Positions 2,351 to 28,600 of a DNA stretch of 64,000 bases are shown one piece after another. The notes under the pieces are model-generated. The model made no database searches. It was not told where the DNA came from and saw nothing but the letters and a program-made list of their open reading frames with translations. Positions within the stretch are counted from its first letter, which is position 1. Every line of letters starts with the position of its first letter. Made by a program: the position numbers and the translations under genes. Source of the DNA: Lingula anatina (taxonomy: Eukaryota > Animalia > Brachiopoda); NCBI GenBank assembly GCA_051362555.1, contig CM120641.1, positions 10,416,001-10,480,000 on the forward strand. The letters run 5' to 3'.

Positions 2351-4281
2351 CAATGATATGAAGCTTCAGGAGATTGATGTCATATTTACAACGTCCATGA
2401 CCAATGAGTGTTGCCTAAATAATACAAATGACTGTACACAAATACAAATACAAACAAACCCTCCTGGTCTAATGTACTATGGAGGAGGATAACACAAATC
2501 CTGACCCAGTCTGACACAATTAATTAATTTACAAATGATATGATACACTGTGACTGATGTCCATTCATAAGATAAAACATATTCTAAGAACCGAAGACAA
2601 ATATCTAAAAGGCATAGGAGTGAAATATTAGCATGAAATACTCAATAAAAATGGATTTTGCTAGAGTTTTCTATATTTAATAACTTATCTTAACTTTAAT
2701 AAATGTATGATATCAAATTTCAAACCTTTTTCTAGAAATAAGAAAAAACTGGTTCAAACATGGCATATGCAAACCATTTTATGCTTATCAGTCAAACAAC
2801 TTCCTTATTTGATACAAAAAAGGAACTCCATCCTAATGCCATTAAGATACATGCATTCACATACAACTGTTATTTCTGCCTCTGCCTTACATTAAATGAC
2901 TCTACTGCCATTAGAGGTATCTAGCGTCACATATCAGTTTTAATTTCAATTTTTTTACTTGTTAAATATGCAATCCAAACTCCTATCATATTTACCCTGA
3001 AAGTTGGGATATGACAGTATAATACAAAGGTGGTAAACACACCAACTATCACATCTGAAATCAGTCAGTCATGCAGCACAGGTCTCATGGCCCTCTAGGT
3101 ACACATGTTAAGAAAATCAATTCTAAACCACTGAAACAAGAGAGTTTCTTAAACAATTTGGTACAGATTTGGTGGCAAATGAGGATGGTGAAGATTCATT
3201 TGAATGCTTGTTGAATGCAATATTTCACAAATATATAATGCACCCCTATACGAAATACATGTAGCACTTTCAGAATCTACATGGATGAATAAATATAATA
3301 TTCTTCATGTTTCAAAGTTTTCAAAAAAGTTGCAGTGTCAGTTTTTTGAATGAATAGACCATGTTATATAACGCTTTGAAATATGAAATGCCATCAACTG
3401 TAATTTATTTTGGTACACAGTATATATTCAAGTAAGATGCTTAAACCACTGACTGACATTAAAAAAGAAAAAATCTGTTTATACCCCATTCCCTATGTCA
3501 AAAAAAATTAAAAATAAAAACACAACATTACCCTTTGATATCTACCAAGATTCCACTGACTTCCTAAAGATTTCAGATTTCTTAAATATTGTGAATAAAG
3601 ATTGACAGAATACCTCACAGACAATGACTGATATGAAAAAAATATATATACACAATGAAAAAGATGATATGATGCTGAGTACCACTTGAGATTCTGGGTG
3701 TACTATACGTGATTCTTCAATAAATCTACAACATGATATCCTCAGTTCTAGCAAGTGTACAGTGTCTAAAAATTATGTACTGATGTCTTAAAATGAGACA
3801 TTTTAAAATGATAACAATAAGCTTGCACAAAACCAATGAAACTCAAAACATTTATCAAACATTTAATTAATAAGCAATAAACTCCTGTAATGAAACTCAT
3901 CATTTCACACAAAAATAGTCATAATCTTGATGTCTCAACAAAAATGCACAAATTGAGTTCATTGTCATGTATGTTGCAATGACAATGTCTGGCACCTTCT
4001 TGTATACTGGCAACTACCATTTTAATTGATGGCTAAGCAAAGTTAGTCAAATCAGTCATAGTTTTTTTTTTTTTTTTTTTTGGATAAAAGTTCATTTTGA
4101 TTGTTTTTTGAGTCAGAAATATGCTGTCCTCTAAACTACTCCATCACTTGCGGCTTTGCTGGATTCTTTATAAATATTCATACCATCTATATCTATTTAA
4201 TTAAAAAAAAAAAATTGAAGTCACACATGTTGTCATAATAGGTAGTGGTAGAAAACTGTGATATGGCGCTCTCTCTCTCCG

Positions 4282-4425
4282 TTACTGTCTGTCAATGGTA
4301 TTAAAGAACCATTCTGTGAATTTCCGTAGCTGTGCAGCTGCAGTTTGAGATTCTTCCTGAAGGCGTAAATTGTCTTGCCGTAGCTGCTGGACCTCCATCT
4401 GCAGAGCGTCTTTATCTTGTCTCTC
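4282..4425 (-). CDS. SIPA1L: SIPA1L canonical terminal coding exon
   Basis: [47 protein letters not shown] then TAA; family-typical C-terminus. Confidence 0.94.
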
Positions 4426-7400
4426 CTGCGTAAGAGATGAGAAAAGTCAAATATACAGAGTAAAAGATAACCCAGGGGGGAAGAGAAGAATACTTGTAGT
4501 AACCCCCCCTGAGTTTCCTACTGAAGAAATGTTAGTGAGTGTCAGTGAGCTGTCTCTCAAAAGTGGTGGTTTGAACCTCTGAGTCCAAAGCGACAGAGTT
4601 GCATTTGGCCACGCCTGTCGTTGTTATACAGGGCTCTCAGGAGGAGTAGATTTTCTTGTTTCAGGTGTTCAATTTCACTTTCCAACCCCCGTTTTGCTCT
4701 TCTTTCCTGTTATAAGCAAGAAATGGTATAATCAAGGTCAGCTCATACTGGTGAAGCAATTTGTACATTCTTGTCTTGTTTTTTTTTTTTTAATTCCTCT
4801 TTTCATATTACCTAGGCGTCACTCAAGATGTTTTGTAGAAAAAAAATGACCCTCTAACTATATAAAGGATCATCAAAGTTTCCAAAAGAACTTAAATCTC
4901 ATGCATTTTAATTTCTGTTACTGAGTAAACTTTAAAAAAATGCAAAATGGATGAAGAACAGAAAGCAACACAAAATGATGATGCCAAATGTCTAAGAATC
5001 TACAATTGTCACAAAATGCACCCAATGATAGAGCATAGACCTTGATTGCACACAGTTTGCTCAAGTTGCTGACAAAAGAGAAGACAGTTTCACACTTAAA
5101 GAAAGCAGGACATACCAGCTCATCTTAGGGCTGAAACAGAAGTTAGGACATCACAGTACATACTCTGTATAGATTAGACTAAATGAGCAAGAGTAAGAGA
5201 AGTGGGGGGTGGGGTACTGGGGGTGGTAGATGGAAGGGGGACAGAGAGGAGGGAGGCATTGCAGGCTAGTTGGATCACTCCAGAAACACAATACAGTAAA
5301 TGCTAACTACTATGCCAGTATGCTTTATATGTTCCATCAACCACATTTGAGGATGATTGCATTTTCATTTCTATTAACACTAATCAAATAATCAAAACAA
5401 AATTAACCATAAATGAATACTGCAATGAATAAACAAACACTTATTAGAGTGGCTAGGTAGTTACTTTACAATAGCATACTGGGTTTATACAAGTAGCCTT
5501 TTACTTTCTATATTAATTCTATTTTCAAAGTTAATGCCAACTTTACACTCTATATGTTAAAAATGTTTTCAAATTAACAAAGCTGCCTGAAACCCATGCT
5601 TTATATATTGTAAACTTGGGAGAGATACTAGTTAGAACAGCCACACAGTAGCTTTACAGGGGTCACACATTTATCAAAACTGAAACATGCTCTTTATGTA
5701 ATAAAAGAAAAATAAGTTTGTAAGCTGGGAAGAGGTATTTCATTTTATTTTCAAAGGATTGGATTCAGGCATGCTCTTCTAGTTTTTTTTAGCCCATTTC
5801 TAAATATTAACAAATTTTCAGTATCTTGGACAAAAGATTTTGTTGTCGAAGATCATAACCTTTCTTTGCAGCAGTTCTTTTACATATAAATATTATACAG
5901 TTTCCCTAAGAGGCAGTGCTGAAAGTAGAAAATTTCAGGCAGTTTTAACAAACATGCTTCTTACTTTCATTTCATATTGCTTACCTTGTCTAACTCTTGC
6001 TGCAACTGCACACATCTGGCCTCCAGCTCCTGTACCCTCTGTGCCGAGGCAGGTGGGACTGGGCGCCAAGGAGTGCTGTAATAACAATCAGAAATACCTG
6101 TCACAAATATATGTGTTCTCCTTGATAATGAAGCCATTTAGTTATCTGTAGTTCCCTTAAAGGTAAGCTTTTGGTCAAATGAAAATATTTTATATTTTTA
6201 GTGGCAAAGAGAGCCTTTGAAGTGTGTGTGTGTGTGTGTGCATGTGTGCATGCATGCATATATCTTATCTCTATCATTCTGTGCTCATAACTTCAACAAT
6301 TTCAAACCATATTTCATTGATCTTAAATCATTTTAGATAAGTCAATAAATTCAATAAGTGTTTTTCTTATGGCAGTCCAAAGTATTGGTCATACTACAAG
6401 TAAATTTTTTTAAACTCCAAAGAGTCTTTAATAAATGTATGACTAACGTTCTATCAAAAGCATAGCTTTATGTACCACAATTATAATATTCTGCTGCAAA
6501 AGGCAAAATGACATATTGATCAGGTAGAAATTTAGAAACCAGAGCTCTAATCTCCACATAATCATTCCCTCCTTGTTACCTTGGGTTAGCTTGTCTTGGC
6601 AGGTGCCGGTCATGAGATGTATAGCGCCCTCTGTCTCCCAATCTCCCTGCATCTCCTCCTCCTCCATGGTCATCAGGCATCTCTGCTGAATCACTGAGTG
6701 CTACACCACTGTCTGACTTGTCATTATTGACATCCAGTGCTGCAAATAAAAAATAGAAATCAAATTTAGGAGTAATTAACCCAGACTTGGACTGTACATA
6801 TGATATATCATTGTAATTATAATGCCCCAAAACTTATACCTATGTTCAAATACATATTGCCAATGTTCAGCTTCAGGTAAACAAAACAAATTACTTTTCT
6901 CACTGCTTCAGTTCAACTGAAGTAGATTGACATTTACATGAAGACAAAAAAAATAAGGATGTCCAATTAAAATCCAACAGCAACTTCAATGAGACAACAT
7001 TCCCTATTTGTTAACTGGTCAACAATGAAAATGGCTGCTGGAGCACCATATGTTCTGAGCTCAACTCATCTGCTGGAAGCTAGCTGGCACAAGCAGGAAG
7101 ACATCCAAGGACAACATATTCTATATCAACACTCCATGTACAAATATACAGTTCTCAAATGATTGCCCAGGAAACTGTTTCAACCAAATGTAGAATAACA
7201 TTTCATACCTGAGAGAACAGCTAGTCTTTTTCTACATGCCAGTTCAGCTGAGCATGTGACAGCTGCTGGTCCCAAGGTATTCAACACACACACACATCAA
7301 AGCAATGGAAATCTATAACTGGATGTCGAATACCTCAGTATATTACTGAGGGTTTTAAATGCCGAAGTGGTGAACGCTTACAAATGCTGAATATATTTTA

Positions 7401-8867
7401 CACGTATGGGAATATGTTGGCTGTGTCTTAATGTGCCACTGTTTTTAGTCACTTTCCTTGAGAAAAGGTTGCACTTTGTAAACAGCAAAGTATAGCAGCA
7501 TTCAAATAAAATAATTAATTAAATGAATTAATGATACCAGAAAGAATTAATCTAAAAGTGTGGTGATGTTGCTCGCTTGCCTCCACTTGAATGCATATTT
7601 TGATCAATACAGGTTTATAATCTAAATTTGTCACAAAGACAATGAAAGAGACATCCTTTTCATGCTTTTAAAGGTACCTTCTTGCATCCAATTTTATACC
7701 AAATATCCATTCACATACACAAGAATGTTTTCTCAAAACTTCTACATAAAAACATCTACTCACTTAATGTGACAAAATCAAATGTCTGCACTACGTAAGT
7801 ATGCTGAAATTCTTGCTGCTATTCCTTTTTCTGTCTTTAAGTAACTACAGACATAACGTCGAGTGCTGTTTCATTAATGTGATTTATATCTTTACATGCT
7901 TCACAGCATGGCACACAGATACAGTAATGCCACCTTGAGGGTAGAACAACACAAAGTACACTAATGGCAGCTAGGGTTATCCGTAATTGCCCAATAACGA
8001 AGCCTGCATTGTCATACATGTTCTAACTAATAAGATGCCACATGCATCATTTTTGTCCTAGAACAACACCTTGAACAATATTTATTCCCCACAGACATCT
8101 AGGAAAAAAGTCCCTAAGAACAGAGAAACTACATGTCTATAAATGGTGCCCACAGCTGGCAATGAACACCATCATTTGTATTGGCAGCTTGAGCTATTAT
8201 TAGATCAATGTCTCATCTGACACAGAATGTCGCCTTGACCTTAGCGCATGTTATGCAAATAAATCATACGCAATTATGATGAGAAAAAATGAACAGCTGC
8301 AACTTAATAAGTGTGTGGTAAAGGAAACGGAGATGAAATACTAATAAAAATATAATGAAGTATATATGTATTGGAAAAATCGATTTAAAAATAACTGTCA
8401 GTGAGAAATGGAGCCCCATTTGTTCTTTCCCTTTACCTCTAATTGAAAGGACATCAATACATTCTGTAATGATGAACTACCCGTAAACTGCATGTCTAGG
8501 CAACTTCTTACTATGTAACTTAACACACACACACACATACACACACACACACACACACACTCATGCCCTTTGTTTGGCAAGTACTCATGCTACTATTTAA
8601 GTGCATAGCTACTTGAGAGCCTCGTCTTTAAACTTGTTCCACCCACACAGACTTAACAGAACAGGAGCTGTGTATATAGTCTACCAGGTAAACCACCTGT
8701 TTTTCACCTGTTCATTGTTACATATGATGACCTTATCTGCTCCATTCTGTGGACCTGGATTGTGCTACATGAACAACTTTCACATTTTCCATGGTGCATG
8801 TCATGTATGTGCATGTGGATACGCCTGCATGCTTGTATCTGTGTTAACATATGAACGGGTGCATGCC

Positions 8868-8957
<90 letters not shown>

Positions 8958-10498
8958 TCAGTCCATAGGCAAGTCCCTGTGTGTATAAATAATGTAACCC
9001 ATGTAATTTACCTTCACTCTTAAAATTCAGACCTCATATATGGAGTTGTCCTGTTAACTGTCAACGTGAAGATTGCCATTTCAATATTTATATCCTAAAA
9101 TACTACCTGTTTTAAGTCCTCGCTACTTTGCCCTACATAATAAACGCCTAGTTACACAAGGTCCACAAATCAACTTCTGAGTTTAAGTAAATAATTTGGT
9201 TTCAAAATCTTTACCTGAACTAAATGTAAGAAGCTTACAGTAAATGCTTATAGCTTGCTGCTGAGGCTTTGACAAGTCTCTAAGCCTACTCCAGCCCACC
9301 TGAACAAGCAGGTCTTCTAACCAGCCTACCCTCTTAATGATGGCGGCCTTGGTGACATAAAAGCTGTGTTGGATTTGTACAAGGCCATTCCTGGGGCAGC
9401 TTATACTTCTTGTCAATTCAACTTCAAAGCAGCCTATTAAGCTATCTTATTACAGGTGTCTGGTCGGAAGGGAAATTTAAAGCAACCATGCTTATTAAAA
9501 CATGACTTGTGTCCCTGTGCTATATTTTTTTTCTTGATTTTTTAATTTCTTTAATGTGGGTCATGAAGTATGACAAAGGTGGACAGACTTTGAGCCAAAT
9601 TTGCTTAATTTTATGGTACTTTTAAATGAATATGTTTCCATATGTCAAAAAACCCACTGATTTTCTCTTTAATATGAATAGTCATTTATATGTCAAAGCA
9701 AAAAGCAAGAAAGTTGAAAGGGACAAACCATACTGCAGATACTTCACTCTAAAAGTTCTTATTTTAATTGTAAAAATTCCTGCAACTGAATCATACATCT
9801 ACCACAACTTATTATCAATGACATGTATATTATGATATTCTTAACCAAACACTTTCATGACTTGCTTAAAAGGGTAGGATACAATATGCATGGCCATGCC
9901 AGCAATTGCAGCAACAATAGTCTAACTCAAAAACTGAAGGACACTCTAGTGCAACCTTGAGATTTCAAATTCATTGTTTAGCAAATAATAATCTACTTCA
10001 GGATACAAGTCTGATTGTTTCAAGTCAATATAAGACCCGATGGTGACATGGCTTGAAGACAATGACAGTAATGAAATATGTGAAAGCTGCCTCCGCATGT
10101 TTCTTTAAAAAATTTGTGGTATGCCATGCCTGCATAGTTGGCAGCATTTATGAACTGCTGCATCATAAAGCCCTCCTTTACTTGATGTCCCATCATGCAT
10201 GTATGTCTTTTCTAGGAATCAATCAAATAGTGGTTTGGGAGTTGGACACAAAAGCAGCATCTTAGGAGCATGGTTGCATAAAATGACTGTTAACTATATT
10301 GTCACCAAGATCATTTTATTCTTAATCCTATGTGGGTTTAAAAACAATGACTGATCCTTTAAACATACACACACTTGGATAGACACAAATACCATATGAC
10401 CTACTCATATTTTAAAGAATTTCATGGAATTTTATAGGTCTAAAATCGTACTGATAGAAAAAATGAGAATATTTTCTAAATATTACAACAACAACAAC

Positions 10499-10557
<59 letters not shown>

Positions 10558-10613
10558 TCGTACTGATAGAAAAAATGAGAACATTTTCTAACTATTACAA
10601 CAACAACAACAAC

Positions 10614-10653
<40 letters not shown>

Positions 10654-13600
10654 TGATCATGAGAGGCATGCTTCTTCACTTGTACATAATGTAATACTAT
10701 GTAATACTACTATTCTTGCTCAAAAATTGACACAAAATACTCAAGGAATGTAACTATTCATTTGCCATAAGCAATGTGAAGAAAAATTTGCAATAAACAC
10801 TTATATGGTAATTCTGACTTGAAATTTGATAAATATAATGAAGTGCTCACCAGTAATTGACAGAACATTGCAAATTATCACAGGCCAATTTTGTGAACTT
10901 ATTTTTTTATTTCACCCAAAAACTCTCCTATGGCCCCCTTAATTTGGAGTTGTCACACCTCTAAACATTTGGTGACTGACATTTCAACTTATAAAGTTGT
11001 GTATCTTTAGTAAATATACATGCAACTGGCAACACTTACTTTCAAATGCCTTATTGGCTGCATCTACTAGGTTGTTCCAGTCCAATCCTGACGCAGCATC
11101 TGGCAGAGGGAGGATGGGGCTGTTACTGGAATGGCCATCTCGTTTGTGAAAGCTGGTGGTCGCACGTGGAGACAACCTACAATGTTACACAAATTACTAT
11201 AAATACTGAACTTTTTGCTTTAAATAACCTACAAAGGTTTGCACATTAATAAAGGCATTGGAACTTTCATTTTTCAGTGGGAACCTTCGTATCATGTCAG
11301 TTCAGAAGTCATTTCATTCATTAAGAATTTATTTTTCCTGCTTCTATAACAATCAATCAAGACAGTATGTGATTGTGTGCAGGAACATTGTTCTTTCCAT
11401 CAATCTAAGTTAGTTCCCATCCTTATTATTATTATTATTTTCCATTACCTTCTATTTTTCTACCTTTCTTCTGATTTGAGTGTCTCTCTCTAGTGATACG
11501 TCTGTCTGAATCAACATCCCCATATAACCTAATATAACACCTGGAGTCTCACCTTTGTTCCTTGGAGAGTTCCTCCCTCCTGGTGGATATCACCTGAGCT
11601 GGTACAGCAGTGGTGAAGATCACATCACTGCCGAGCTGCATGTCCATTGGAAGTAGAGACTTGCCACGCACTGGAGGTCCCCCACCTGCCAAACTCTCAT
11701 CCGACAGTGTGCGCTGTAACCTGGCTCCGCGCTTGGCTGAAAACTGAGCCTGAGGATTTGTGCCCTTGAATGTGAGTAAATAATAGTTGGTGTGGGTTTT
11801 TAGTCTCTCCATTCATTATAGCAGAAAAGCAACAGGAATGTCATGCTTTATTTTTGCATCTAGTGACAGATGGATTCTCAAGGCTCTTTGTTGAACATAA
11901 GGTCACATATAAGAGACAAACCAAAAGCAATCATATGTACACCACAATGTTATTCAGAAACTTTGTCTAACAATGTAGGAAAGAAATCAAGAAAAAGATC
12001 CTATCTTCCTTCTTCTATTTATTAATATGAATCCCCCATAACACAGTTCAAGAGAGATGATTAAAGATATCATATATCTTGTTATAATTTTTATGCCAAA
12101 TTGGTCACATTATCAATTTTTTTATAACCCACCTTATTTTGACGAATCTCTGCATCTGATACATCAGGGTCTATGAGCCTCATAAGTTCCTCTTGGAATG
12201 ACATTGTTGATTGGCTGGTTGGCTTTGGAGGCAGTCCCTTAGGTGGCAGTGCAGACACTCCTGGTCTTAAACGTGCTGAGAAGGAATCATCTGGCACTTG
12301 AGCATTTCTAGAAAAACAAAACAAAACAAACAAACACACAAAGATTATCATTTGTTAAGAGAATAATAGATACAAAATCCCCTTTCAGGAAAAAAAAAAA
12401 AAAAATACACCTGAGACTATATCTATAGGCTTTTTTTTATCTAGCTTCTTGCCTTGGTGAGGTGTGTGTCAAGAAATAATGTAGAGCAAGGAAAGAAAAA
12501 ACATACACCCCCCTAATGAATTTCTATTTATATAACTACATTTATATAACTGCACTTGTAAACAAAACAACCTTGGATCTGGTTGTCTAGACACTTAAGA
12601 CAGCATTTCTCTTTGAAATAGTAAATATCCACATAAAAACAAGACATACAATGTGCATGTTAATGACAAATTTCTATTTGCACACAAGTCAATGCATACT
12701 AAAATTCTAAATAAATAAATAAATAAAAAATAAAAAAATTAATAAAGTAATAATAATAATCTGATTTATATAGAATGACCTGACATCTCTTTTATTAGAT
12801 CTCCACCCCTTAAAGAAGAGAAGAATTTCATCAGCTGTGTTAAGTTACAAGAATGATGTGATTTTTTCTTCATTGGAAATATTGGAACCTATCTCAATAT
12901 TAGCTGTTGACTGAAGAAAAAATAACATCATTCCACCCCTTAAAGCTTTTATAATCTAACAGAAATTGTGCGAGCTTCATGGGAAGTATTTTAATGATTA
13001 TGTGCTGCCTGGTTCTTGAATGTTTCAATGATGCTAAAAAAATAAATGAATAAATACCAAATTACAACTGCTACTAACACCAGAAACAAATTTCCATATT
13101 CACCTGCATCACTGGCCTAGCTATGCACACACAATAAATAACTAGGAAAATAAATTATAAAAATAGTGGAATATTTATGTCAGCATGTACAAAGGGAGGG
13201 GCTGGGAGTGGGAATGGCAAGTAGAATTTTATCCCTTCTCTGATGCCATATTACCCACTCACTGTTTCGTATGATAAATCTTTTTTAATCAGACAGAAAA
13301 ATCATCTTTATCAGTAAAAGTTGATTTGCTGTCAACAACCCAGTACATTTATTCATTAGATCTATAAAACCAATAGACAGCTCCACTGTCCATTACTACA
13401 TATATCCTAAAGACTTCATTGGCATCATGCCAACCCCTATACACGTGAAACATTATCAGGCAATTAATAGATGACAATTACTATAATGCTTTAGTCTCTT
13501 GCCATTTTTATCTCTCTTCCCCGTGAAATTCTCACATCTAAAACGCAGTTTAACAACCAATTTCATATTGAACAACCTATCAACAATTATGTGAACTAAC

Positions 13601-16600
13601 AATATGTATGTCAATATTTGTCTATTTTTAGAATGGTTGGTTTCAAGTCATAGTTTGAAATGGGATAAAATTGTTCCTTGTGACAATGTACAAAACTAGA
13701 TAAAGAGACACATGTTAAATAATGTATCAGAAATCTGAGGTCATGTTGTGTATGAATCACCAGGGGAAATTTACAAAGTGTCCACAAAATAGGCTTCATT
13801 AAAACAACTAATGAGGTCCCCTCAAACTCTTACTTTTAAATGATTTATGTAATGAAAATAATACTATATAAATTAGGGAAATTTTTAGCACTGTCAATTG
13901 TTCACTTATTATGAAGCAAGAGTAGTTCTCTTAATATACTACACTAGTTGTCATTAAGGCACTTTCTGTGTTCACATTTTCAAAGGATTGTTTAAATATT
14001 TCTTTGCTGGGTTGGACATTTTTACCTAGCTGAACTCTTGGATCAATCTTTTTAATGTATTCCTTCTATTACATGTACATGGCAACCTTTGCCATCCAGG
14101 CACCCATGCTTTTAGAATAAATTTAAAACTGTCAACTGCACAAGACCCCTGGGAACTAGTGATACCTAATAAACCTGTCTAGGTACAGATGAGATGAGAT
14201 CAATAATCTACAGTTGAATTATATACTTGCTATTTGACTAGACCTTCTTGTGATTAATCAGAGAAAAAAAACTGGTTTAAGCAATAACCAACAAATTATA
14301 TATATTTTTTTTAAATTTCTGACATCCAATATCCTGTGGCAGCAGTTCAGCTATATATATGGCAAATGACAACCACTAATTCCTAAAAATTTTTTTTTTT
14401 TTAGTCAATCGCTTTTTTTAAATGATGCCTGGGCCATGCAAAATTATATATTTGTCTGAACCCACATATTTTTTGTGAATACAATGGATACTTGAAATTG
14501 GCAACATTTGGAAACCAGACTAGTGCTAATACAATAGTTTCAATCAATAGTTTCATTTCACTCCGACAAAAAAAGAAAAAAAAAATTTTTTTCGCATCGC
14601 TCTTGAGGCAATGTCCTCTTCCAATTTAACAGATCCAAACAGTGAAGGTAAAAGGTAAAGGTTAAATCTTATAGACTGATATCCTTGATGACTGAGTTTA
14701 CTGAAGGTCATTATCATGGCTGACTGAAAACTATTTCTGGATCTGCTTTAAATCAGTCTACCTGGAGACACCTTCACATCTAACTTCAAAATACTCTGAA
14801 GTCTGTCATAAGGTTGATCTAGGCTGTGTGTCAGCAAGACTCATGATCAGCTCAGCTTTTCCAGTCCAATGCTCTTTATATTGGACATAAAATACAGTTC
14901 CAGCTGATTGTTAAAATATTTTGATTTTTCTTTCTTTCCCTTTTCCAGGACACAATGATTTTCACTCAACTGGCTCTCTTGATTTTAGATGCAAACTGAA
15001 TATATTTTTCCTTCTCTGAAAACAATAAATAGCATGTCTATGCAAATTTGACATCTATTAGCTAATTGCATCCCCATTTAAATGCATTAAATTTTGGTAT
15101 ATTAGGCATACCTGTTAGACTTGGGACTACTGCTGTTGCTGCTCATGGGAGACATGTCTAGATATGGGCGACGGAATGCTGACTTAGCGCCACCTATCAC
15201 TGGGGTAGTTTGACGACGATCATCTGAAAATAAGAAAACAAACATATACAAGGCAGCAAAGCTGTCAAATGTACAGACAAAAAGCAGGAAATAACAAAAT
15301 AGGCTACTGTCAATTCTGATGCAAAAGTACATTATGTTAAACTGCAAATTCAACATCAAATTTTAATTATGCTCAACAGGTAATACCAATGTAAGTAAAA
15401 TGTGCAACAAGCATAAGGCTTTCAGAAAAAGAAGTCAATTAGACTGCTTTTCCAAATCAGGATGCATTTTAGTCCTGTATTTCTTTTTTGAAAGTTTGGC
15501 AACCATAAGTAACATGGTTTTCCCATAATGGTCATCATGGCAGCAGCACCCAAAGTTGTGTTTTCTTCTATTCTGATGCAATATTACATAATGGTTAACA
15601 GCATAATGACAATCAATTTTTAATAATAAAATATACATATCATGGATTTTCAGAAAATGTGACTAGCATGAGTCTTCAAGCCTGTAGAACTTCAAAGTCA
15701 CACCTTGAAAATGCCAATATGTGAAAAACTAAATTTTCACAAAAAAAAAAAAAAAAACAAGGCAGCAAAGCTGTCAAATGTACAGACAAAAAGCAGGAAA
15801 TAACAAAATAGGCTACTGTCAATTCTGATGCAAAAGTACATTATGTTAAACTGCAAATTCAACATCAAATTTTAATTATGCTCAACAGGTAATACCAATG
15901 TAAGTAAAATGTGAAACAAGCATAAAGCTTCAGGCCCATGGGAGTTCAAGTTCACACTTTGAAAATGTAAAACTTCCAGAAAAAGAAGTCAATTAGACTG
16001 CTTTTCCAACTCAGGCTGCATTTCAGTCCTGTATTTCTTTTTTGAAAGTTTGGCAATCATAAGTAACATGGTTTTCCCATAATGGTCATCATGGCAGCAG
16101 CACCCAAAATTGTGTTTTCTTCTATTCTGATGCAATATTACATAATGGTTAACAGCATAATGACAATCAATTTTTAATAACAAAATATATGTATCATGGA
16201 TTTTCAGAAAATGTGACTAGCCTGGGTCTTCAAGCCTGTGGAACTTCAAAGTCACACCTTGAAAATGCCAATATGTGAAAAATTAAATTTTCACAAAAAA
16301 AAACTGTTTATCTGGCAGATTACATTGCCTACTGAAGCTGTATTTTAGTCCCATGTTTCTTTCCTGTAAGTTTGAGAACAGTAAGTGACATGGTTTTTCT
16401 TAAAAGGTAATCATGGGAGCAGTGCCCAAAATAGGTTTTTTTCAAATTTTGATGCAATGTTACATAATGTTTAACAGCATAATGACCATCAATTTTTACT
16501 AATAAAATATTAGTATCATGGATATTCAGAAAATGTGACTAGCAAAGGTCTTCAGGCCCATGGAACTTCAAAGTCACAACTTGAAAATGCCAAAATGTAA

Positions 16601-19600
16601 ACAAGACAGCACTGTTCTGAAATGTTTTTTTCCCCATTTTTAACAATTTTTAACATAAAACAAAATTAACAGTTTACTGCCATTTTTATATGATCAACTA
16701 AGAAAATTGATGACATGAGAAAAGTATCAATAGAGCAGTGTTAAATGTCCAATTTCTTCCATTCTGAGATTCTGAACATAGTGAATGATTGAATCTGACA
16801 AATTGCAATGATATGAGTTTATTTCCATTTTTGAAACTCTATTATACAATACATGATAACAAGTTTACCATCATTTTTACATAATCAACTAACAATGTTG
16901 TAAAGGTGCAGGAAATGTCAAACAAACACTTTCACGTATCTTATTAGTTTAATAATGAGACTGTTAACATGCCTAAAGAAATGTGAAAAAACAGCATACC
17001 TTCTAAAATAATGGCACGATTATGCTGATTTACGAACTCAACCTGCATTTTAGTAAAATTGACCACTCCTGTGACTTTCATGACAATTGGCCCATCTGTT
17101 TTTCTTATATTGTGTTTACAGTGTTGCATATAGGCTGAAAAGTGTAAAAAACAGCATAACTAGTAAAATAGTGGCCCGATCATGCCGATTTTCGAACTTG
17201 ACCTGCGTTTTAGTAAGATTGATTACTCCTGTGAGTTTCATGACAACAGGTCTATCGGTTTTCCTTGAAATGTGTTAACAGTGTTGCATATATGCTGAAA
17301 AGTGAAAAAACAGCATAACTACTAAAATAGTGGCCCGATCATGCCGATTTTCGAACTTGATCTGCGTTTTAGTAAGACTGATTACTCCTGTGAGTTTCAT
17401 GACAACAGGCCAATCGGTTTTCTTTGAAATGTGTTAACAGTGTTGCATATATGCTAAAAAGTGAAAAAAACAGCATAAATTCTACAATAATGGCCCGATC
17501 ATGCTGATTTTCGAACTTGACCTGCGTTTTATGAATATTAGTCAGCTCTGTAAATATAAAGCCAAAAAGTAAAACTGTCTTCCACTTATGGTGTTAACGC
17601 TGAAAGTGCACGGCGACGGCGACAGCGACGGCGACATGATCGGCGACGGCGACGGCGACGACAGACGCAGGTGATGGCAATATGTACAGACACATCTGTG
17701 TCTGTACATAATAAAATACACAGATACTTTTTTCATTGGAAAATGAATAATTATAACAATCTAAAAATACAATGATTTACAAATAAGCCAACATCAAAAC
17801 ACAAGCAACAAATAACATCTACCTTTCCCATGATCCCTCGGGGCTAGTTCCATAGTTGAGCCGTGCTGTGGGCGTGACCGACTGCCTGCGTGGGATGAGT
17901 TGCTGGACAAAGAAGACACATCACTGATCTGACTGAGATTAGAACTGCTGATGGAGGGATTAGAGCCACTGATCGCTGCCAGCATGCGGCGGTGGTCACT
18001 CCCAGATTGGCCTGGGGAGCGGTTTTGGTTAGAGCCAGTGCCAGGACTGGGCTTGCCACTGCTGCTGCCACCATGGCCATCTTGTGAGGGAACAGGAGTG
18101 GTGGTGGAGCTACTCTGATGCATGTGGTCGGAGGTAAACCTGGCAATACAAACAATGGAATATATAATAAAGATTCTAGGGCCTGAGGTATCCCTGATAA
18201 AATATTTCATTATCTCTAAAGATAATCTGTTATAAAAATATAATAATGATTATTAGAGCAGAGGTATATGTAAAACAAAAATATCATAATAAGGATTATA
18301 TCTTCCATTATCAGCATTGCAGTAGCTCTAGTCAATTAATTACCTAGACTATAGATTTTCAATCAAATGAAACTTTGAAGTTGTACCTATAACTAAATGA
18401 TGGCATGTGATTTAAAAGTTGCTTTCCTATAAACAATGCCTATATATATATATATAATAAAATTTAAAATAAATCAAACATTCTAACATGACCTGAGAAA
18501 AACCAATAGTGTCAGTGACATACCCAGTCCCTGGGGTTGAGGCAGTCAGGACCTTGTAGCCCTGCTCAGCTGAACTCAGGTAATTATTATTGTGATGGCC
18601 CTGTAGACCTGTGGAACCAGTCTCCCTATACCAGTCTTCATGGTCTCCTGTCTTCTGTGATAAACCCTGGAATAATAAGATATAACATAGTGGTTCCGAT
18701 TACGTAAATGCCACAGAATAGCACACAAACATGAAATGAGATCAATGACCTGTGTAGTTTCACTTCTTAGCATCTAACAATCCAAGCTTAGTGTTAGTCT
18801 AAGAAGCAAACACGTGTATCATGCACATATAAACACCCACACGTATTCGCACCAACACACACACAAATGCACACCCTTACACAAATTCTAGTTGAAGTTA
18901 CACATTAAGGATTTAACTTTACTTTGACACTATTTCAAACCAAAATAACCCCTAAAAATAAAAATAGCAAAAAACAAAAAAAAATTCTAATGACAAAGCT
19001 GCTCTGTTCATGTGGTCTGGATGCTAAGGTTGGAACTAACCCTCATCTCTCCAAGCACTTGCTTCAATTTGTACTAATAAAACTCTTCACACTCTTTAAA
19101 TGGTTTCTGCCTATTTCAGACTTCATCCATGAGATGACTATTTGTCCAAGGTATAATTTAGCCTGTCAGAAAAGATTACCCTCGAACATAGAAATTGCAT
19201 CAAAACCTTACTAATGACGTCCAAGCTTGAGGTTTCTCATCACTCGGATTTCTCTTTCCTTTTATAAGTGACGCAAGCAGGAAAGTAGCCTACGTGCCAC
19301 AATCTAGGTAGGCTCTTAGTGATAGATTGGTCAAGGTCATTTCTAGCTGTGTAGCCCCTGGTGTGCTATGTAATCCCTGACCTTTACATGCACAAATATA
19401 ATAGATGGTTTACCCAATAGCTGTCCTCCATATGCAGCTGTCATTAAAAGCAAGGACAGATCTGAAGTGACTGAACACTATAATACCCAGTGGGCTGGCT
19501 TAAATGGAAATGCATTATGATGAGGTTTTTGGTATTAGAGATTAACTGGTACTAATTTGTTTCATGTTTTTTTTTCTTTGTTTTACTTCTTTGCAAATTT

Positions 19601-22600
19601 TTACATTGATCTATTTATTTTTCACATGGTTAACTTATGTTATTTACCTGATTTTGACACTTAAGTCCTCCCTCCCAACATCTAAATTGAACATTGTACT
19701 TAGTATCTTTATAGTGAGATGTTATAAATTCAGTAAGCTTTATATTATCCCCAAATCAAAAGAATTTCATCACTGGCCACAAAGCTTTAACTTGTGCCAG
19801 AGGCAACAAATCTCACAGTCTAAATATTGTTAGCAAGTTCCAGTTTTCATCTCCCTTTACATGACACTAGTTTTACAGCCATTTTAACTGGGTTGTCAGT
19901 TGGCACTTCACACAGTAGATTACTTATTATTTATTTTTAATTCTGACCTCTCCCCCCCCCCCCCCTCTCCCTCTCTGACATACACACACCTACACACACA
20001 CAAAGACACACACACACTTAATAACCAAATAAATTCCACACAGATCACATAGTCCATGTTTATCAATGCACCTACTAAGATCAGATAGTTTAGGCCAGGT
20101 TCCCAGTGAAATTAAAATGGCTTTACCAAGTTCTATCTAAATGGGCCGGGGAGGCAAACACAAGGCTAACTTTAATTACAATGGCTGTGTAAAAGACACC
20201 AGAGCAATTTGATTGGACTCAAGTCAACATGTCATATCTTAAATGGAAATTCAATTTTACTCACATCACTAGACAACTAGATTGTTTAACAATGAATTCA
20301 AAGATTCTCAGTTTTTTTTTTTGCTCACAACATAGATTATCTCCTATATATGATCTAAGTTAATCCATTTGTGAACACAATACCTCAGCTATGTTAGCAG
20401 TAACTATTATGAGTGTGATTTACTTCCCACATGAATTCCCAGTGAATATCAAGAGTAATCAGTATGCCTAGTCCACCGCTTACCTAATGGCTATGACAAA
20501 GCTATGCAACATCCATTGTAAGTACTCAATGTCTGTTATGTTTATGCCCACACAAAACACTTGTTTAATATAACTGTTATTGTAGTTGACTTTAAAAATA
20601 TGTGACCTAGATGAGTTGACAATACTGAGTACAGTTTTATTTCCCCCAATTTTTGTTTATTGCACTAAGCTTTTATAATAAATCAGCTTAAAAAATGATA
20701 ATAATAATAACAATAATAAATAAAAAAAAACAGAGCTTGGAAATGTTTTGACTTGGAGTTCACACAAAAATTCTTACTTGGTCTCTCCCAGAGTGCTGAG
20801 ATGAGCTCTTGCTGGACCAATTCTTCACTAAAATTAAAGAAAAAAGTCCTTTAACTACTTTATATTTAGCAAAATAGCACTATTAAGATGAGGAAACTTT
20901 CAACTACCTTTTTTACTATATAATGTGATTTTCTTACATTTTGACAAAAAGAACCATACTTGAAAAGAAAAAGAAGCAACACAAACATAATATCCAAGAT
21001 GGACACACTTCAAATTGTCTATGCTATAAAATTTTGACATCAAGCATTTATAACTTAGTAATACAATATTTTGTTCAATATTATACTGTAAAATTTAAAG
21101 GAGCTCTCCTCACCCTGTGGTTCAGGCATCTGGTGAAGGGTAGTGTCCACACTAGATCCTCTGCCTTTAGATCCGTAACTAGCTGTGGAAGACAGGGTGT
21201 TTGTGTTGCTCCCACTGTGGCTGGTAGAGTTGGAAAGTTTGGATTCAGACCTAGAGAGATAATATGAATTCCGGAAATCAACTCATTATTGACTACTAGT
21301 TAATTAGTTTCTTTATTTTCAGGTGTGTTAATATGCTTAATAATTCATAGTTTCAATTCTCTTTTCTTATAACAGAACTTTGCACCTAAAAGGGCTTAAA
21401 GTCAAATACTTTGGAACTTCATTTCCCATCAAACACATTCTTCACACAATCTTCACTGCAGACTCTATGCAATCACAAACCTCACCCAACTTCCTCCACA
21501 TTTCCAAAGTATATTTCTCTGTACACGCCACACATTTTAATACTCCCTTATAACCAGCTACAACTCTTAACATGTTGTCCAATTTCCAAAATGCACAGAA
21601 CTGTACACAAAGAAAGAGTCATCCATAAAACACAATGCTCATAGCACTATTGCAGATTAAAAAAAAAAAAAAAACTTCGACCACAACGCTCTGAGCATCA
21701 AGGTGTCCCCTCTCACCTTGGATTGTAAACCCCGCTGCCAGGCAGACTACGCATAGAGCTGCGCACAGAAGGCGGCAGGGAGTCATCTACATAAGCATGC
21801 TCAACAGAGTAGACAGTGTGCTGGGAGCTCAGAGAGGACTGACTGGAGTAAGGGTCCTCAGGTATTCTAGAAACAGCAGAAGAATCAGGGTGCAAAGAAA
21901 GGGTTACATAGATAACTGCTAGGTCAATATGCACATGTAAATTTGGCTTTTTTTATTTCAGTTTCCAAAGTTTAAACTTGGTTAACAGGCTTTTTTTTTT
22001 TTTTTTTTTTTGTGGCACAAGCACAAATTACGTAAGACAGAACTGTATGGTAGAATCATAGGTAATCAAATGATAGATTTTTTTTTACTTCATAGGATAG
22101 AAAATTTTATATGAGAAATATACTAGCTTTGAATATTTTTTCAGTTGAACAGTTAATGTAAATCCAGGTTTAACCAGAATAAGTTCAAAACCCAAGTTAT
22201 TTAGTGCACGTGGACCCAGAAGTAACATGGAAGCATTACAGGAATATATTAATGCTGTTTTCCTCTTGAAAATGTTAAATTATATGTACATAAGTATTTC
22301 TATGAGCAATTTAAAGATTACCAGTGAACTTTGAAATATATAAAAGAAAAGTAGATCATGACTTCAGCAGACAGCCAAAGTCTTATTGCGACAGTGGTCA
22401 ACACTAATAAATGAGTTAAAAGAAACATTAGTTTTACAAATTAAGAAGTGCTACAGAAATTGTATGACAATTGTTAATCTTGTATAATTCAGTTACATAT
22501 AATCTAAATTGCATTATAATGAGTGCTAATTCACTTGACATTTATTTCTCATGCATTACCAGTCAGTACATAAAGCATTAATTTGTGCTAAACATAACAT

Positions 22601-25600
22601 CTATTAACTATGTTCATAAAGCACTTGTTGAGAAGTATAATCCAGAAAGATGTTCCAGAAATTACACTGTGTGGATAAAAGAAGCACCCAAAAAAAATTT
22701 TGTTTTAAAAATACTGATTCTAATTCAACAAATTTTACTATATACACTGAGGTATAATGATGCTATATCCTCAGAAGCTCTAGGTGTAAGAGGCAATGTT
22801 GTGAAGCAGCATGAAGGGCAATTTCACTTTATTATAATCATGAATGATTGAAAGTTACTAAAATCTTAAGGGTGGTATGCCTTTTTTTTCCTTTCCTTAC
22901 CCACATTTTAAAAGCTAGAGGGATGAAGAAAGCAAAGCTTCTGATAAATCAACCTTCTTTGAGTAAATTGACCCATACCTTCTTGGAGTTCCATCCTCAA
23001 ATGGTGGGATAACAACCACTTTGACAGTCACCGAGGTACGTAACAGGTCTACCATATGTTCATGCGATAGTGTTGCTGTGGCAACTTTGCAGATCTCAAC
23101 CAATCGGCTGCCTTGTCTCAAACCAGCTTGCCAGGCAAATCCGTATGGTTCTACATCAGATACTATCCCTTCATAATGGACATGAAAGCCTAGCTGGCCC
23201 AAGCCATTACGCCGTAATGTCATTTCCACTGTCTGAAGTCATAAAAAGATTTTCATTTAAATTCTGTTTAAAAAAATCTAATGAGATATTCTTCTCTAAA
23301 ATAGACAGAAAAATTCAACAAATAAAGAATTAAACATTAAGATAGTATATTCATAACAATTTGATTAATAATAATAAATTGATTTAATATTTAGGCTTTT
23401 GCAGAGTGAAATTTAAATTAAAATTCTTTCAAGTTGCACATTCCACTAAGCTATTAACTGTGCACTTATTTCAAATGATCACTCACCAATGCTTTTTCAG
23501 GTATAATATCCTATCTTATTATTTTCTTTTTTTTTTTGAAAACTGCATTTTTGAGGCCTTGATATGAGTCCCAAGATGGCCATTTAAGATATGCACACAA
23601 ATGCGAAATGCCAAGCTCTAATGTGGATTGCTTTTATAAATGAACTCTTTGATGTGTGCCCCACAGTGTTACAAAATGCACAATTTGATAATGTAATATA
23701 ACACAGTGTAAATTCAGTATGGCACAACCTAAGGGGGCTGTTCATCATGCAATATAAAATCCAAGAGCAACCATAACCCATGAATGCCAAAAAGCAATCA
23801 AATTAATTTTATATTAAATTTTGTACCTTCCGACCACTTCAGCTCTAAAGTACCCAATCTTATCAATGATTAGGTAATTTGATGCACAATCACCTTGTGA
23901 ATTTGTGGAAGATAATTCTTTGAGCTGCCTTTAAGGGCACTGTAAAACAACACTCATCTGATAGGTGATAAATCTTTTCTATATCAGGCTAGTGCCGTTT
24001 TGGTTACTTCATTATTCTTTTAAGATGCTTCTTTGTCGTGATACAATATAAATCAAAAGACAGGGTCTATATCATCAAATTACCTTCTTATATCCTGACT
24101 TCCAAGAAACCGTGAAACTGTCTTTGCTTTAAAATAATTGTTTTTTTTTCTCTTCACATTATAAGAAACCAGGGCTCATCAATCCAGTCATGGCCACAAG
24201 ATTGATATGCTGATAGCCAATAAAGATCACAGTCCAAAGAACCCATTATAAAGAAAGTGTCTAATGAGGCCCAGCAAGTATGTCTTATTGTCTGGCTTAT
24301 CTCTAATTACATTTAGGGCAATAAAATCCATCCATATTGGACTTCTGTTTAAGTATAGTATGTGTCAAATTTAATTTCTTTCAAAGTTTAAGTCATATAC
24401 ATTTGCCGTTTTAATTTGATTGAATCACATGTGGATCATATAAGTAATGGTTTTCTGTATGAATGTTCTACTGTTGAAAGGTATTTTTGTTTTAGGGCAT
24501 CAGTTTCCACATGAGACAATCAATGTTAATCTAAATATCCAATTTCTTGGTTCTTTTCATGATGGATGATGCATCAATTTGTTGTTCATGTGACTAATCT
24601 TAGAGATTAGGACAGATTAGGAGGTAACTGAAAACTTTTTCATCCTTATATCTTTTGTCTATTTGTTAATCAATTAAAATTTATATTCCTAAGTCAAGCA
24701 AGCTACCAATTAATGCAGTGGTGCAGGCTTCAAAACATTTTGTTTAGAAATCAGATACATATTTATCATTCATGAATTATTATTAATTTCTTTTGTAAAA
24801 AGTAAAAAATTAGAAGAAAAAGAAAAAGTTTATTCCATATGCTATGGTACCTCAATTCCCTGAGTGACCACTTGCAGTCTGCTGATGATTTCCTGGAGTT
24901 CCTCTGTGATGTCACAGCCAGCGTGGGGCTTGACAAGGACACATTCCCCATGGTCATAGTAGATTCTTATACTGAAACGGGTTTATTACATAAATAATGG
25001 AATGCTATGGAAAACACTCTATGAGCATAGTAAATTATTAAACCACTGTTAAATCATGTACAGAAAGACATTGGTACATTAAGTATATTAAGTGATATAA
25101 GTAGTTTCTTACTGAAACAATGGACTGTTTATACATAGATTACAATCCTAGTTTCAAAATCCACTGTTCAATTATTTTTTCAATAGTTAATCACTTTCTA
25201 AAAAAAAACCCTTGTTAAAAAAAAAATTCTTACCTGTCAGTCCCTGTGGTCCAGCCAATGACTGACTTACTAGGGATGGTGAACACGACATCCTTGCTCT
25301 CTTCCTCTATAACCACCACACTATCTGGAGCTATGGCCAGGAAACAGTTGATGTTGGAGTTCTGGCTGAAGTCTTCAACCTGGAATTGAAGATCAGAAGC
25401 ACTGTAATTACACCATTTCTGCTGGTGCTTGAAGATACTACTTGTTTTTATGAGCAAAATTAAAAAAAGAAATTATTAACAATTATTAATTTTTTTTTCA
25501 TTTTTTCTTCTTTCTAGTGAAACTGCATGATATACTCATGCAGGATAGCAAATTTTTTATCATCACCAGATGTCTATAATTCCACTGACAGTTACAAACT

Positions 25601-28600
25601 GAAAACAGATGTAGATGACTTCTTTATTTCTCTACCTGTACGCTCCATACCACTCCTCCCTTAGCATAAATATCTGGCACCACTTTCTGCTTGGCACGTT
25701 CTTTCTTCCTTCCACTGCCCAAACCAAACTTGCCTAACAAGAGAAATAGTTTTTTTAATGAATATGACAAACTACATTTAATGATGACATTTAAAGTGTA
25801 TCCCTTATGAGTTTACAACATATAAGCAATGCTTCTTTTATATATCCCTGATAAAAACTAAGGTAAGTTTGAAGTCACTCTTTTTTGTCAAATAAGACAA
25901 ATTATTATTTTTGAGATCTAGAGCCCTATAAATACCAACCAAATAAATGATAAATTCTCATTGCTTTTCATGTGTCACAAGTATGCGTAATTATTCCCAA
26001 TAACTTACTTAGCTTAGAACTGGACTCTAAGGCTGTTGTACTGATGTAATTGGTTGCTAAGTCTTTTAGATACTCTTGTCGTGTCCGAGTTGCCATGGCA
26101 ACAAATTTTTCTGATTTGTGTGCAGCATTTTCTGCATTTATTACTGGAAAGAAAATGTGAATTGTATTAAAAAATACGTCCAATAAAAAGCAAAAAATAC
26201 CTCAGATAAAGATGGAGACCCATCCTTGTCAATAACAAAACCCATCTATTTTTTAATAAAGAATTGTCCACAGGGGGCTTTGATTCCCATTTCCGTATTA
26301 AGGAAATAGATAATTGCATTACCATGTCAGCACGTTCCAATCAACATTTTTATTATCATTAACTTGACTCATGAACCGTATTCGTAATGAAGTGCAAACT
26401 GTCCCTCTTAGACATCACCAGCATGAAACAAGATTAGGGGCAAAAAAGTATAGCAAAATGAATTCCATGCTCTGCATCACATCCTAGTGAACTTCACGTT
26501 ATGGATGTTTAATTCATTACTACAGACTTAATCACTATGGGGCAATTTCCTTTGTGCCTTTTTCCTGCACTTATCCATTGGTATAATTGAAAAGACAATT
26601 ATTGCCTTAAAGATAATTGCTATATTCATGTTTTCTCAAGTAAGCACAGAGATGGGGAAAACTGCAAAAAGTTGGCCATTCCACAAAAGATGATGTTTTA
26701 TGCATAAAAATAGCATTTTACTATAAATGTGCTTATGTAGAGAGATAATAAGGTTCAGTTTATTCTGTGCTGCGAATATTTGTTTGTTTGTTTTATGGAA
26801 TGAATAGATGCCTATTTGCAAACATCATATTAGCATCGTCACCATGGCTAGAGATATGAAATGTCAACCTGAGATTGGTTTCACAAACGATCATAGTTAA
26901 CACTTTCTGTAAATAGCTCCTTGTTAAATGTGCAGTTCTTTTGAAATAAAAATCCATCAAACACATCCATACAACATGAGGCTTTTGTTAAACCTTTTAT
27001 TTAGATGGTGAAACTAATAAAATTCTCACCTTTGGCAAGCAGGAAGTCAGCAAACTCCTGTGATTTAGAAAAGATAGCACCCTCTGGAATGGCTGGCCCA
27101 AATGGAGGCACATCTTTGGACCTTGACACAGCCACACTGGAAAAACCAACAATAGCTATACTTACATATCATTATACAGAAAGAAATGATGTCTCTGAAA
27201 TGAAATATCCTGATGTACCTGGCTCAAATGAATGCAGTAAAATATTCAGGCACATTCTGATATAATTCTGTACTGGGCTGGGTCTAAATCACACCAACAT
27301 GCAGACAGCCCATTAAACTATAACCAGTAATGCAATGTAACTGTTGCAGGTGCAATGGGACATTACTGTAGTTGGCGATCTGCATAAAATTCCCAAGATA
27401 AAATCTATGTAATATTACACGTGGAATGCCACTTCTACATTTCAGGAAAGTTGGCATAAAAATATGTCTCGCAGGCCCATAATTATTATAATAATTGCCT
27501 CTTTACATTGACTTTGTTGGCTTAAGATTTCTTGGCTTAGCTTATACTTCTTTACCTTATACTTCTTAAGCTTATACAACCATAGCCAACTGAGCTGTGG
27601 ACTAAATCTCAATTTTTTCAACTTAACATACCAGAAAAAGTCTTGACACCACTTATAATAATTGACACTAACATATGACACCTATGAAGCCATCCCCCAG
27701 TATTCTCCTACCTGTATCTGACATGATCAGTGTTAGGATTGTACACCTGCACCAGTATGAAGACGTGTTGGAAGTGGGAGCGGACTGTCTTGGGAGTAAA
27801 GGGGAGGGCACCTGGTTCCTGAAACACTATGGTGACTATGTCGTTGCCAATGTGGCGCTTCCTCAGCAACTGAAATAATGATAATAAATAAAAGATAATT
27901 ATTGTTAATGGTATAAAGTGCCATTTACATAAATGTTTATCAGCATCATTATTTTTATCATTACAACAAGAAAGATTGTTATTTTTTTAAGAGGAATTGC
28001 TATCTAAGAGACAACATCAGTCAGCTTAGCTATATGGTTCACCTTCCTACCATTTCTATGGAACAGATAGAAAAAATAGGTTTTCGGGCATTGAATAATA
28101 AATAAATAAATAAACAATCATGGACAGCAGCTGAAAAAACTGTTATACTCTTCCTTATTGATAATAACTGATCTTGTATGTCTCATTCTACTGACTAACA
28201 ATTTTTCCATTGGAAACATTTATTCGAACAAAATCAAACAAGCACCACAAATAATATCTGACTTCTCTTTGTTCAACTAAAGGACAAAAATGAAATCCAC
28301 ATGCATCATGGGTATATCTGCACCAAAGTAAGTGTGTATATAAAGCAGATCCCCCATGTTGTGTCTACTTGCAAAGGTTTAAATGACAGCATTTCCTTTC
28401 AGAGAGTGTGGAATGTCTAGGTATATATACATCATTATAAACATCCCCAGTCAAGAATATGATAACCAACAAGCATCTGTGCACAAAGTTCAAGTAGTTA
28501 AGGCATTCCAAAAGCTCATAACTTAAGAGCCTGGATTTGCTTACATCTCGAACTTCAGTGAAAATAATGAATGTAATGAGGGCTTTGCAAACTGTGCTGC

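Follow-up and report, generated by a model that had tools for sequence, protein, structure and literature searches.

The SIPA1L gene of the brachiopod Lingula anatina, which encodes a RapGAP regulator of the Rap switch and lies on the minus strand of the 64,000-nucleotide stretch of DNA analyzed here (the window), has a real, expressed, and annotated alternative C-terminus that is so far known from one genus. The penultimate coding exon is spliced to either of two last exons, and we think it fairly probable that the upstream one is an old tandem duplicate kept by selection and that its use yields an isoform predicted to have the zipper of the C-terminal coiled coil and to be without the distal docking end.

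The gene assignment is based on the RefSeq protein models and on domain content. Of the 1684 residues of RefSeq isoform X1, 1682 could be placed on the window; they fall into 25 blocks and include 2 mismatches. This low number of mismatches over the mapped residues indicates that the window is a closely related allele. A Pfam search with the same isoform returned PF21022, PF02145, PF00595, and PF11881, all passing the cut-off, and the Lingula gene has the domain set of the SIPA1L/SPAR RapGAPs, that is, Rap-GAP dimerisation, Rap_GAP, PDZ, and SPAR_C. The features of the gene that are needed below, all on the minus strand, are the following.

4282..41211 (minus strand): SIPA1L coding span, with RapGAP dimerisation, RapGAP, PDZ, and SPAR_C domains and the coiled coil
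5985..6075 (minus strand): penultimate coding exon, in which the C-terminal coiled coil begins with 2.5 heptads
4707..4741 (minus strand): upstream (alternative) acceptor, with a branch-like CTGAC, a short pyrimidine tract, and CAG; weak score; joint 4705/5984 in reads
4557..4706 (minus strand): alternative last coding exon, 49 codons and TGA (4559-4557), phase 0; tail of RefSeq isoforms X1 and X3
4426..4556 (minus strand): spacer of 131 nt; in isoform X2 the end of the intron with the canonical acceptor, in the alternative isoform the start of the 3' UTR
4282..4425 (minus strand): canonical last coding exon, 47 codons and TAA; tail of RefSeq isoform X2 and likely 3' UTR in the alternative isoform
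3800..4281 (minus strand): 3' UTR common to both isoforms, with read coverage extending at least to 3800

Both last exons use the phase-0 donor of the penultimate exon (GT at 5984), and they begin 281 nt apart (4706 versus 4425). An original prediction, made from the DNA alone, had placed a phase-0 open reading frame of 49 amino acids at 4706-4557, upstream by this same offset of a canonical exon of 47 amino acids at 4425-4282, and we confirmed all of these coordinates. It had also called the upstream acceptor a good one. The AG (4708-4707) and the sequence quoted upstream of it are indeed present, including the branch-like CTGAC at 4741-4737, but the site is weak, scoring 0.5 bits versus 4.5 bits for the canonical acceptor and 0.4-15 bits for the 21 other acceptors of the gene on a small matrix trained on the gene. 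We rejected the interpretation of the upstream exon as a cassette with a donor inside 4706-4426, because a motif scan found none of the 11 GT sites in this interval to be consensus-like and no such joint is listed in the reads. A motif scan for AATAAA and ATTAAA found neither from 4706 to 4202.

Four of nine RNA-seq runs from the same species were placed on window positions 3800-6200; their labels (runs X1, X4, X7, and X9) are distinct from those of the RefSeq isoforms (X1-X3). As had been predicted, both 3' splice sites are seen in use. The canonical joint (5985 to 4425) is found in 1, 4, 11, and 4 reads of runs X1, X4, X7, and X9, respectively, and the upstream joint (5985 to 4706) in 7 reads of run X7, with 4 different starts, and in 1 read of run X9; runs X1 (0/1) and X4 (0/4) have zero junction reads into the upstream acceptor. 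The upstream acceptor is therefore used in 8 of the 28 junction reads listed for the four runs, all 8 of which come from two runs (X7 and X9) of one study, and five additional short loose ends in run X9 look canonical and would reduce the upstream share of that run. Run X4 shows ~3x depth over 4529-4690 that is unaccompanied by a junction read; under the usual library convention, these reads belong to the strand of the gene.

In run X7, depth is 0 in the intron bins 4772-5905, 5-7x over 4448-4690, and ~15x over the shared canonical exon, from which we estimate by hand an alternative share of ~39%, in agreement with 7 of 18 junctions. Given the zero depth across 4772-5905, we rejected pre-mRNA or intron retention as the source of the reads in this run. 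Depth across the 131-nt spacer is continuous in runs X7 and X9 and dips in run X4. Given the continuous spacer depth in runs X7 and X9 and the lack of both a poly(A) signal and a donor, the alternative transcript seems to read on through the canonical exon, which it keeps as 3' UTR, and it seems that the choice of 3' splice site rather than a separate poly(A) site decides which last exon is used. The four RNA runs list no joint between the new stop and position 3800, and the earlier claim that no junction follows this stop holds as far as that position. Read counts are small, and direct support for the upstream splice comes from one study and the RefSeq models.

The exon had been described as hidden, and this proved incorrect: RefSeq isoforms X1 (XP_013415004-7, 1684 aa) and X3 (XP_013415009, 1634 aa) end in exactly the 49-residue alternative peptide, preceded by the same upstream exon as seen here, and the C-terminus of isoform X2 (XP_013415008) is 100% identical to the canonical last-exon peptide. 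Isoforms X1 and X3 are automated models whose record does not mention a duplicate origin of the tail, and a literature search for an alternative last exon of Lingula SIPA1 or SIPA1L found no description.

Aligned in register, the two last exons are identical at 10 of the first 23 residues and at 1 of the next 24. Of the 23 codons compared at the DNA level, 15 agree at position 1, 15 at position 2, and 9 at position 3 (30/46 at positions 1 and 2). On a position-specific scoring matrix (PSSM) built from 38 non-Lingula last exons, codons 1-22 of the alternative exon, a cut picked after inspection, score 33.3 bits; orthologs score 38-59 bits, and of the 1,896 other stop-free peptides that follow an AG in the window, none scores above -1.7 bits. 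Two null models that preserve the heptads give p=5e-4 and 4e-4 for this matrix, and real segments of the same proteins moved by whole heptads reach at most 12.2 bits. Run against 2,965 six-frame segments, a 47-column HMM from 41 non-Lingula orthologs retrieves the open reading frame with E=0.0007, and its alignment spans profile positions 1-22 with no cut preset. Over codons 1-22, synonymous sites are saturated (pS 0.94, 13.8 sites), with dN of 0.39 and pN of 0.31; over codons 23-47, pN is 0.72, as for unrelated sequence. In the homologous part, the alternative exon is identical to the Lingula canonical exon at 10 of 22 positions and to the canonical exons of other animals at 7-12 of 22, and since it is no closer to the former than to the latter, the duplication is either old or fast-evolving. 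A search for repeats turned up neither a DNA repeat shared by the two exons nor any convincing RNA pairing. Judging from these sequence comparisons, the alternative exon very likely arose by an old tandem exon duplication that has left partial homology, with codons 1-22 homologous to the canonical exon and codons 23-49 unrelated or nearly so. The in-register similarity and old exon duplication put forward in the original prediction thus hold beyond chance (profile E=0.0007, nulls of ~5e-4) for the first 22 codons, at saturated synonymous sites, and find no such support in codons 23-49, which look random against the family.

The a/d core of the coiled coil runs through V L C L L E in the shared exon and then through the last exon, as K5 L8 V12 L15 N19 L22 S26 A29 L33 F36 F40 in isoform X2 and as K5 L8 I12 L15 N19 L22 L26 N29 G33 Q36 F40 in isoform X1. 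Leucine at d, and asparagine and lysine at a, are typical of parallel dimeric zippers. Between the two exons, the zipper core of codons 1-22 (K5, L8, I12, L15, N19, and L22) is identical or conservative, which bears out for these codons the claim that heptad positions have been kept. The copy retains E1, E11, L15, N19, and L22, each of which is present in 37-41 of 41 orthologs, has K in place of R16, and has lost R21, which lies within the homologous half and is invariant (41/41 orthologs). The canonical exon is near-invariant over the 41 orthologs from codon 23 onward, and this degree of conservation points to a binding surface. Its QEESQ...FTEWFF end is present in isoform X2 and absent from the tail of isoforms X1 and X3, where it is replaced from codon 23.

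Single-chain AlphaFold models give one confident helix over residues 2-46 of the canonical exon (pLDDT 96) and a helix over residues 2-39 of the alternative exon, in which confidence drops past residue 30 (block means of pLDDT of 94, 97, 89, 72, and 59). The helix of the new tail is confident for ~30 residues. The alternative isoform is predicted to keep the coiled coil and to drop a tail that is conserved from worms to mammals. Because no match was found for codons 23-49, the evidence fits a loss of the conserved distal motif better than the acquisition of a new one.

Searches of two large protein collections with the 49-residue tail found no homolog (15 candidates in the first, none with E<=10, and 0 matches in the second); both blanks are weak, and the first search also missed Lingula's own isoform X1, a non-representative cluster member. 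We also compared 340 SIPA1L proteins, the first 120 of which were chosen by their canonical tail. A loose canonical-tail pattern fits 294 of these; the other 46 are 2 Lingula isoforms, 5 spider proteins whose canonical tail has diverged, 5 snail isoforms, and, for the rest, fragmentary, truncated, or mis-ended sequences. Among these 46, a second in-frame coiled-coil last exon was found in none apart from Lingula's. The comparison covers multi-isoform sets for many molluscs and amphioxus and one model each for annelids and nemerteans, with Lingula as its sole representative of brachiopods and phoronids.

Sequence variation in the RNA reads bears on whether the alternative exon is maintained. 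Relative to the window, reads of runs X7 and X9 carry 11 fixed differences in 365 flanking nt (canonical exon, 3; spacer, 4; penultimate exon, 4) and 0 in the 150-nt alternative exon, a count from which the partly polymorphic rows 4407 and 6045 were excluded. All 7 coding differences among those in the flanks are synonymous. The difference between 0/150 and 11/365, at similar depth, gives p=0.039 in a Fisher test that was post hoc. Synonymous changes are also absent from the alternative exon (32 sites, with ~4.6 changes expected by hand estimate); their absence could reflect splicing enhancers serving the weak acceptor, or low depth and chance. These data weakly suggest that the alternative exon is under constraint within the species, and we consider that it is probably under some selection. 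As a separate observation, runs X7 and X9 carry 7 synonymous differences from the window in ~48 synonymous sites of two exons, which suggests that their source is a distinct population or a cryptic species, despite the same species label.

The exon could also be a decaying duplicate that is spliced since its acceptor survives and that is tolerated, the isoform doing nothing useful. Decay would be in keeping with the weakness of the acceptor, with codons 23-49 that look random relative to the family, with the lack of homologs elsewhere in the proteins searched, and with the two of four runs that have no upstream junction reads; however, it leaves unexplained why the a/d core together with E1, E11, and N19 has been kept despite saturated synonymous sites, why the frame has stayed open for 49 codons, why the isoform accounts for ~39% of the junction reads of run X7, and why 0 of 150 nt differ in a diverged read set. 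We regard decay as a rather unlikely explanation.

A second alternative is a true partner switch, as the original prediction had suggested: residues 23-49 would provide a novel site to which a different partner is recruited. In an alignment made with MAFFT, the segment QLCRF of the alternative tail lines up with the family motif QL[RK][RK]F after a gap of 4 residues; this match scores only 2.3 bits and is the best of 15 offsets. Codons 23-49 are unchanged among the window, RefSeq, and the reads of runs X7 and X9, and the modelled helix runs to residue 39, but model confidence falls past residue 30, and the alternative tail has no match of note in Pfam (0 families), in the PDB (only weak coiled-coil matches to PAR-4 and CtIP, E 1.8 and 2.9), or in the ESM Atlas (top score 0.86, a lead only). 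We consider a switch of this kind quite unlikely.

Returning to the interpretation that we favor, a selected duplicate whose use trades the distal docking end for a shorter zipper, we posit that the upstream acceptor, being weak, is in competition with a stronger one downstream; such weakness (0.5 versus 4.5 bits) is what a regulated or leaky site would show. The alternative message would then continue through the canonical exon as 3' UTR, and since no junction follows the stop in the stretch examined, the isoform would escape junction-dependent decay. The alternative protein would keep its RapGAP, PDZ, and SPAR_C domains and could still form a shorter coiled coil, and by analogy with vertebrates its tail would bind the partners of the conserved end (of Fezzin/LZTS type in that group) weakly or not at all. 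Such a change in partner binding would shift where Rap is switched off.

Upstream splicing might instead serve mainly to lower gene output, through a longer 3' UTR and an unstable mRNA or protein, the peptide being incidental. The 3' UTR is 275 nt longer in the alternative message, and our intron check of the UTR reached only to 3800; nevertheless, the isoform is abundant in the steady-state poly(A) RNA of run X7, and a heptad-perfect in-frame start is unnecessary for decay, which makes this explanation very improbable. Chance exonisation, without duplication, of an intron that resembles a generic coiled coil is hardly credible, for although short coiled-coil motifs recur in unrelated proteins (as in the weak PAR-4 and CtIP matches) and no DNA repeat was detected, the match begins exactly at the splice junction and in register, heptad-shifted real segments stay at or below 12.2 bits versus 33.3, and 30 of 46 nucleotides are identical at codon positions 1 and 2.

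The Lingula locus is a newly recognized instance of C-terminal tandem-exon substitution, which is an already known class and an ordinary form of alternative splicing. In the main texts of PMC9741552 and PMC8373072, substitutions between tandem duplicated exons are described as enriched at C-termini and often located in coiled coils, as in the 3' exons of tropomyosin; 77 of 236 human events are C-terminal, and the class takes in partly decayed homology. SIPA1 is absent from both main texts. Like the members of this class, the Lingula gene has adjacent homologous 3' coding exons (codons 1-22 only) in the same phase that encode alternative C-termini, with one shared donor and only one exon translated per transcript. 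It seems to differ in two respects: human C-terminal events are described in these main texts as arising via alternative poly(A) sites, the usual but not an obligatory route, whereas acceptor choice alone seems decisive in Lingula, and most human events are described there as ancient and conserved, whereas the Lingula exon has so far been seen only in Lingula.

The vertebrate SIPA1L1-3 (SPAR1-3) proteins share the domain order and the near-invariant canonical tail of the Lingula protein; no second coiled-coil last exon was seen among the vertebrate SIPA1L proteins compared, a set biased to the canonical tail. LZTS proteins of vertebrates are described as binding SIPA1L1 by a reciprocal coiled-coil interaction (bioRxiv 10.1101/2021.02.12.430872), Fezzins have been proposed to set synaptic SPAR levels (PMC4877498), and invertebrate bilaterians are described as having a single Lzts gene (PMC13622200). 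In brachiopods, LZTS binding is a candidate interaction by analogy.

The canonical tail is lost at the same junction in RefSeq isoforms X1, X2, and X4 of Biomphalaria glabrata (P0242, P0244, and P0245) and in isoforms X1 and X3 of Physella acuta (P0308 and P0309). In one isoform pair per snail, the tail is compatible at 48 of 48 codons with the canonical exon frameshifted by a 7-nt insertion. Tail loss in these freshwater snails has a different mechanism, and it may represent splice noise or convergent regulation. A bolder proposal would be that brachiopods have long had a selected splice switch that releases the single SIPA1L of invertebrates from its Fezzin/LZTS anchor, and that the 7-nt shift in Biomphalaria and Physella is a convergent counterpart. 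We regard this proposal as doubtful; if it is true, tail-less SIPA1L would be a recurrent regulatory form in invertebrates with only one SIPA1L gene. The locus also offers a natural domain dissection of the SIPA1L tail: the alternative exon preserves the zipper half and exchanges the other half, which is near-invariant between brachiopods and mammals. A comparison of the two tails would reveal to which half Fezzin/LZTS partners bind. The gene also provides a lophotrochozoan case in which C-terminal tandem-exon substitution is seemingly driven by the choice of acceptor; the significance is modest, as RefSeq already includes the isoform and mechanisms of this class have been well described.

We made several further observations on this gene, its orthologs, and its surroundings. 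Within the last intron, a stranded cluster of reads at 5177-5419 (minus strand) reaches 7.9x in RNA run X1 and is found in none of runs X4, X7, and X9. The intron's top-scoring AG (7.1 bits) opens at 5419 and is followed by 11 codons and a phase-0 stop, with no joint listed; the cluster may represent either a handful of fragments or a short last exon, which would be the third. Farther upstream, a 50-codon cassette exon that follows the PDZ domain (21866-21716, minus strand) is present in RefSeq isoforms X1 and X2 and missing from X3. Several SIPA1L isoform pairs of molluscs likewise show a length difference of ~50 residues (in Haliotis, for example, 1653/1603), and we consider their orthology to the Lingula cassette a candidate relationship. 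The conserved tail is ~25 residues longer in Octopus, Argonauta, and two relatives (P0144, P0145, P0146, and P0161), and the FTEWFF end is degenerate in spider orthologs (P0200 and P0316-P0320). Blocks of tandem repeats are apparent by eye in an intron at ~17600-17000 and 16650-15300 (minus strand), with units of ~160 nt and a longer unit of several hundred nt. Finally, a kelch-repeat gene lies upstream of SIPA1L on the same strand (window ~61000-54800, minus strand); the three exons tested match best to PF24681 (KLHDC2/KLHL20/DRC7 kelch), each scoring under the whole-protein cut-off.
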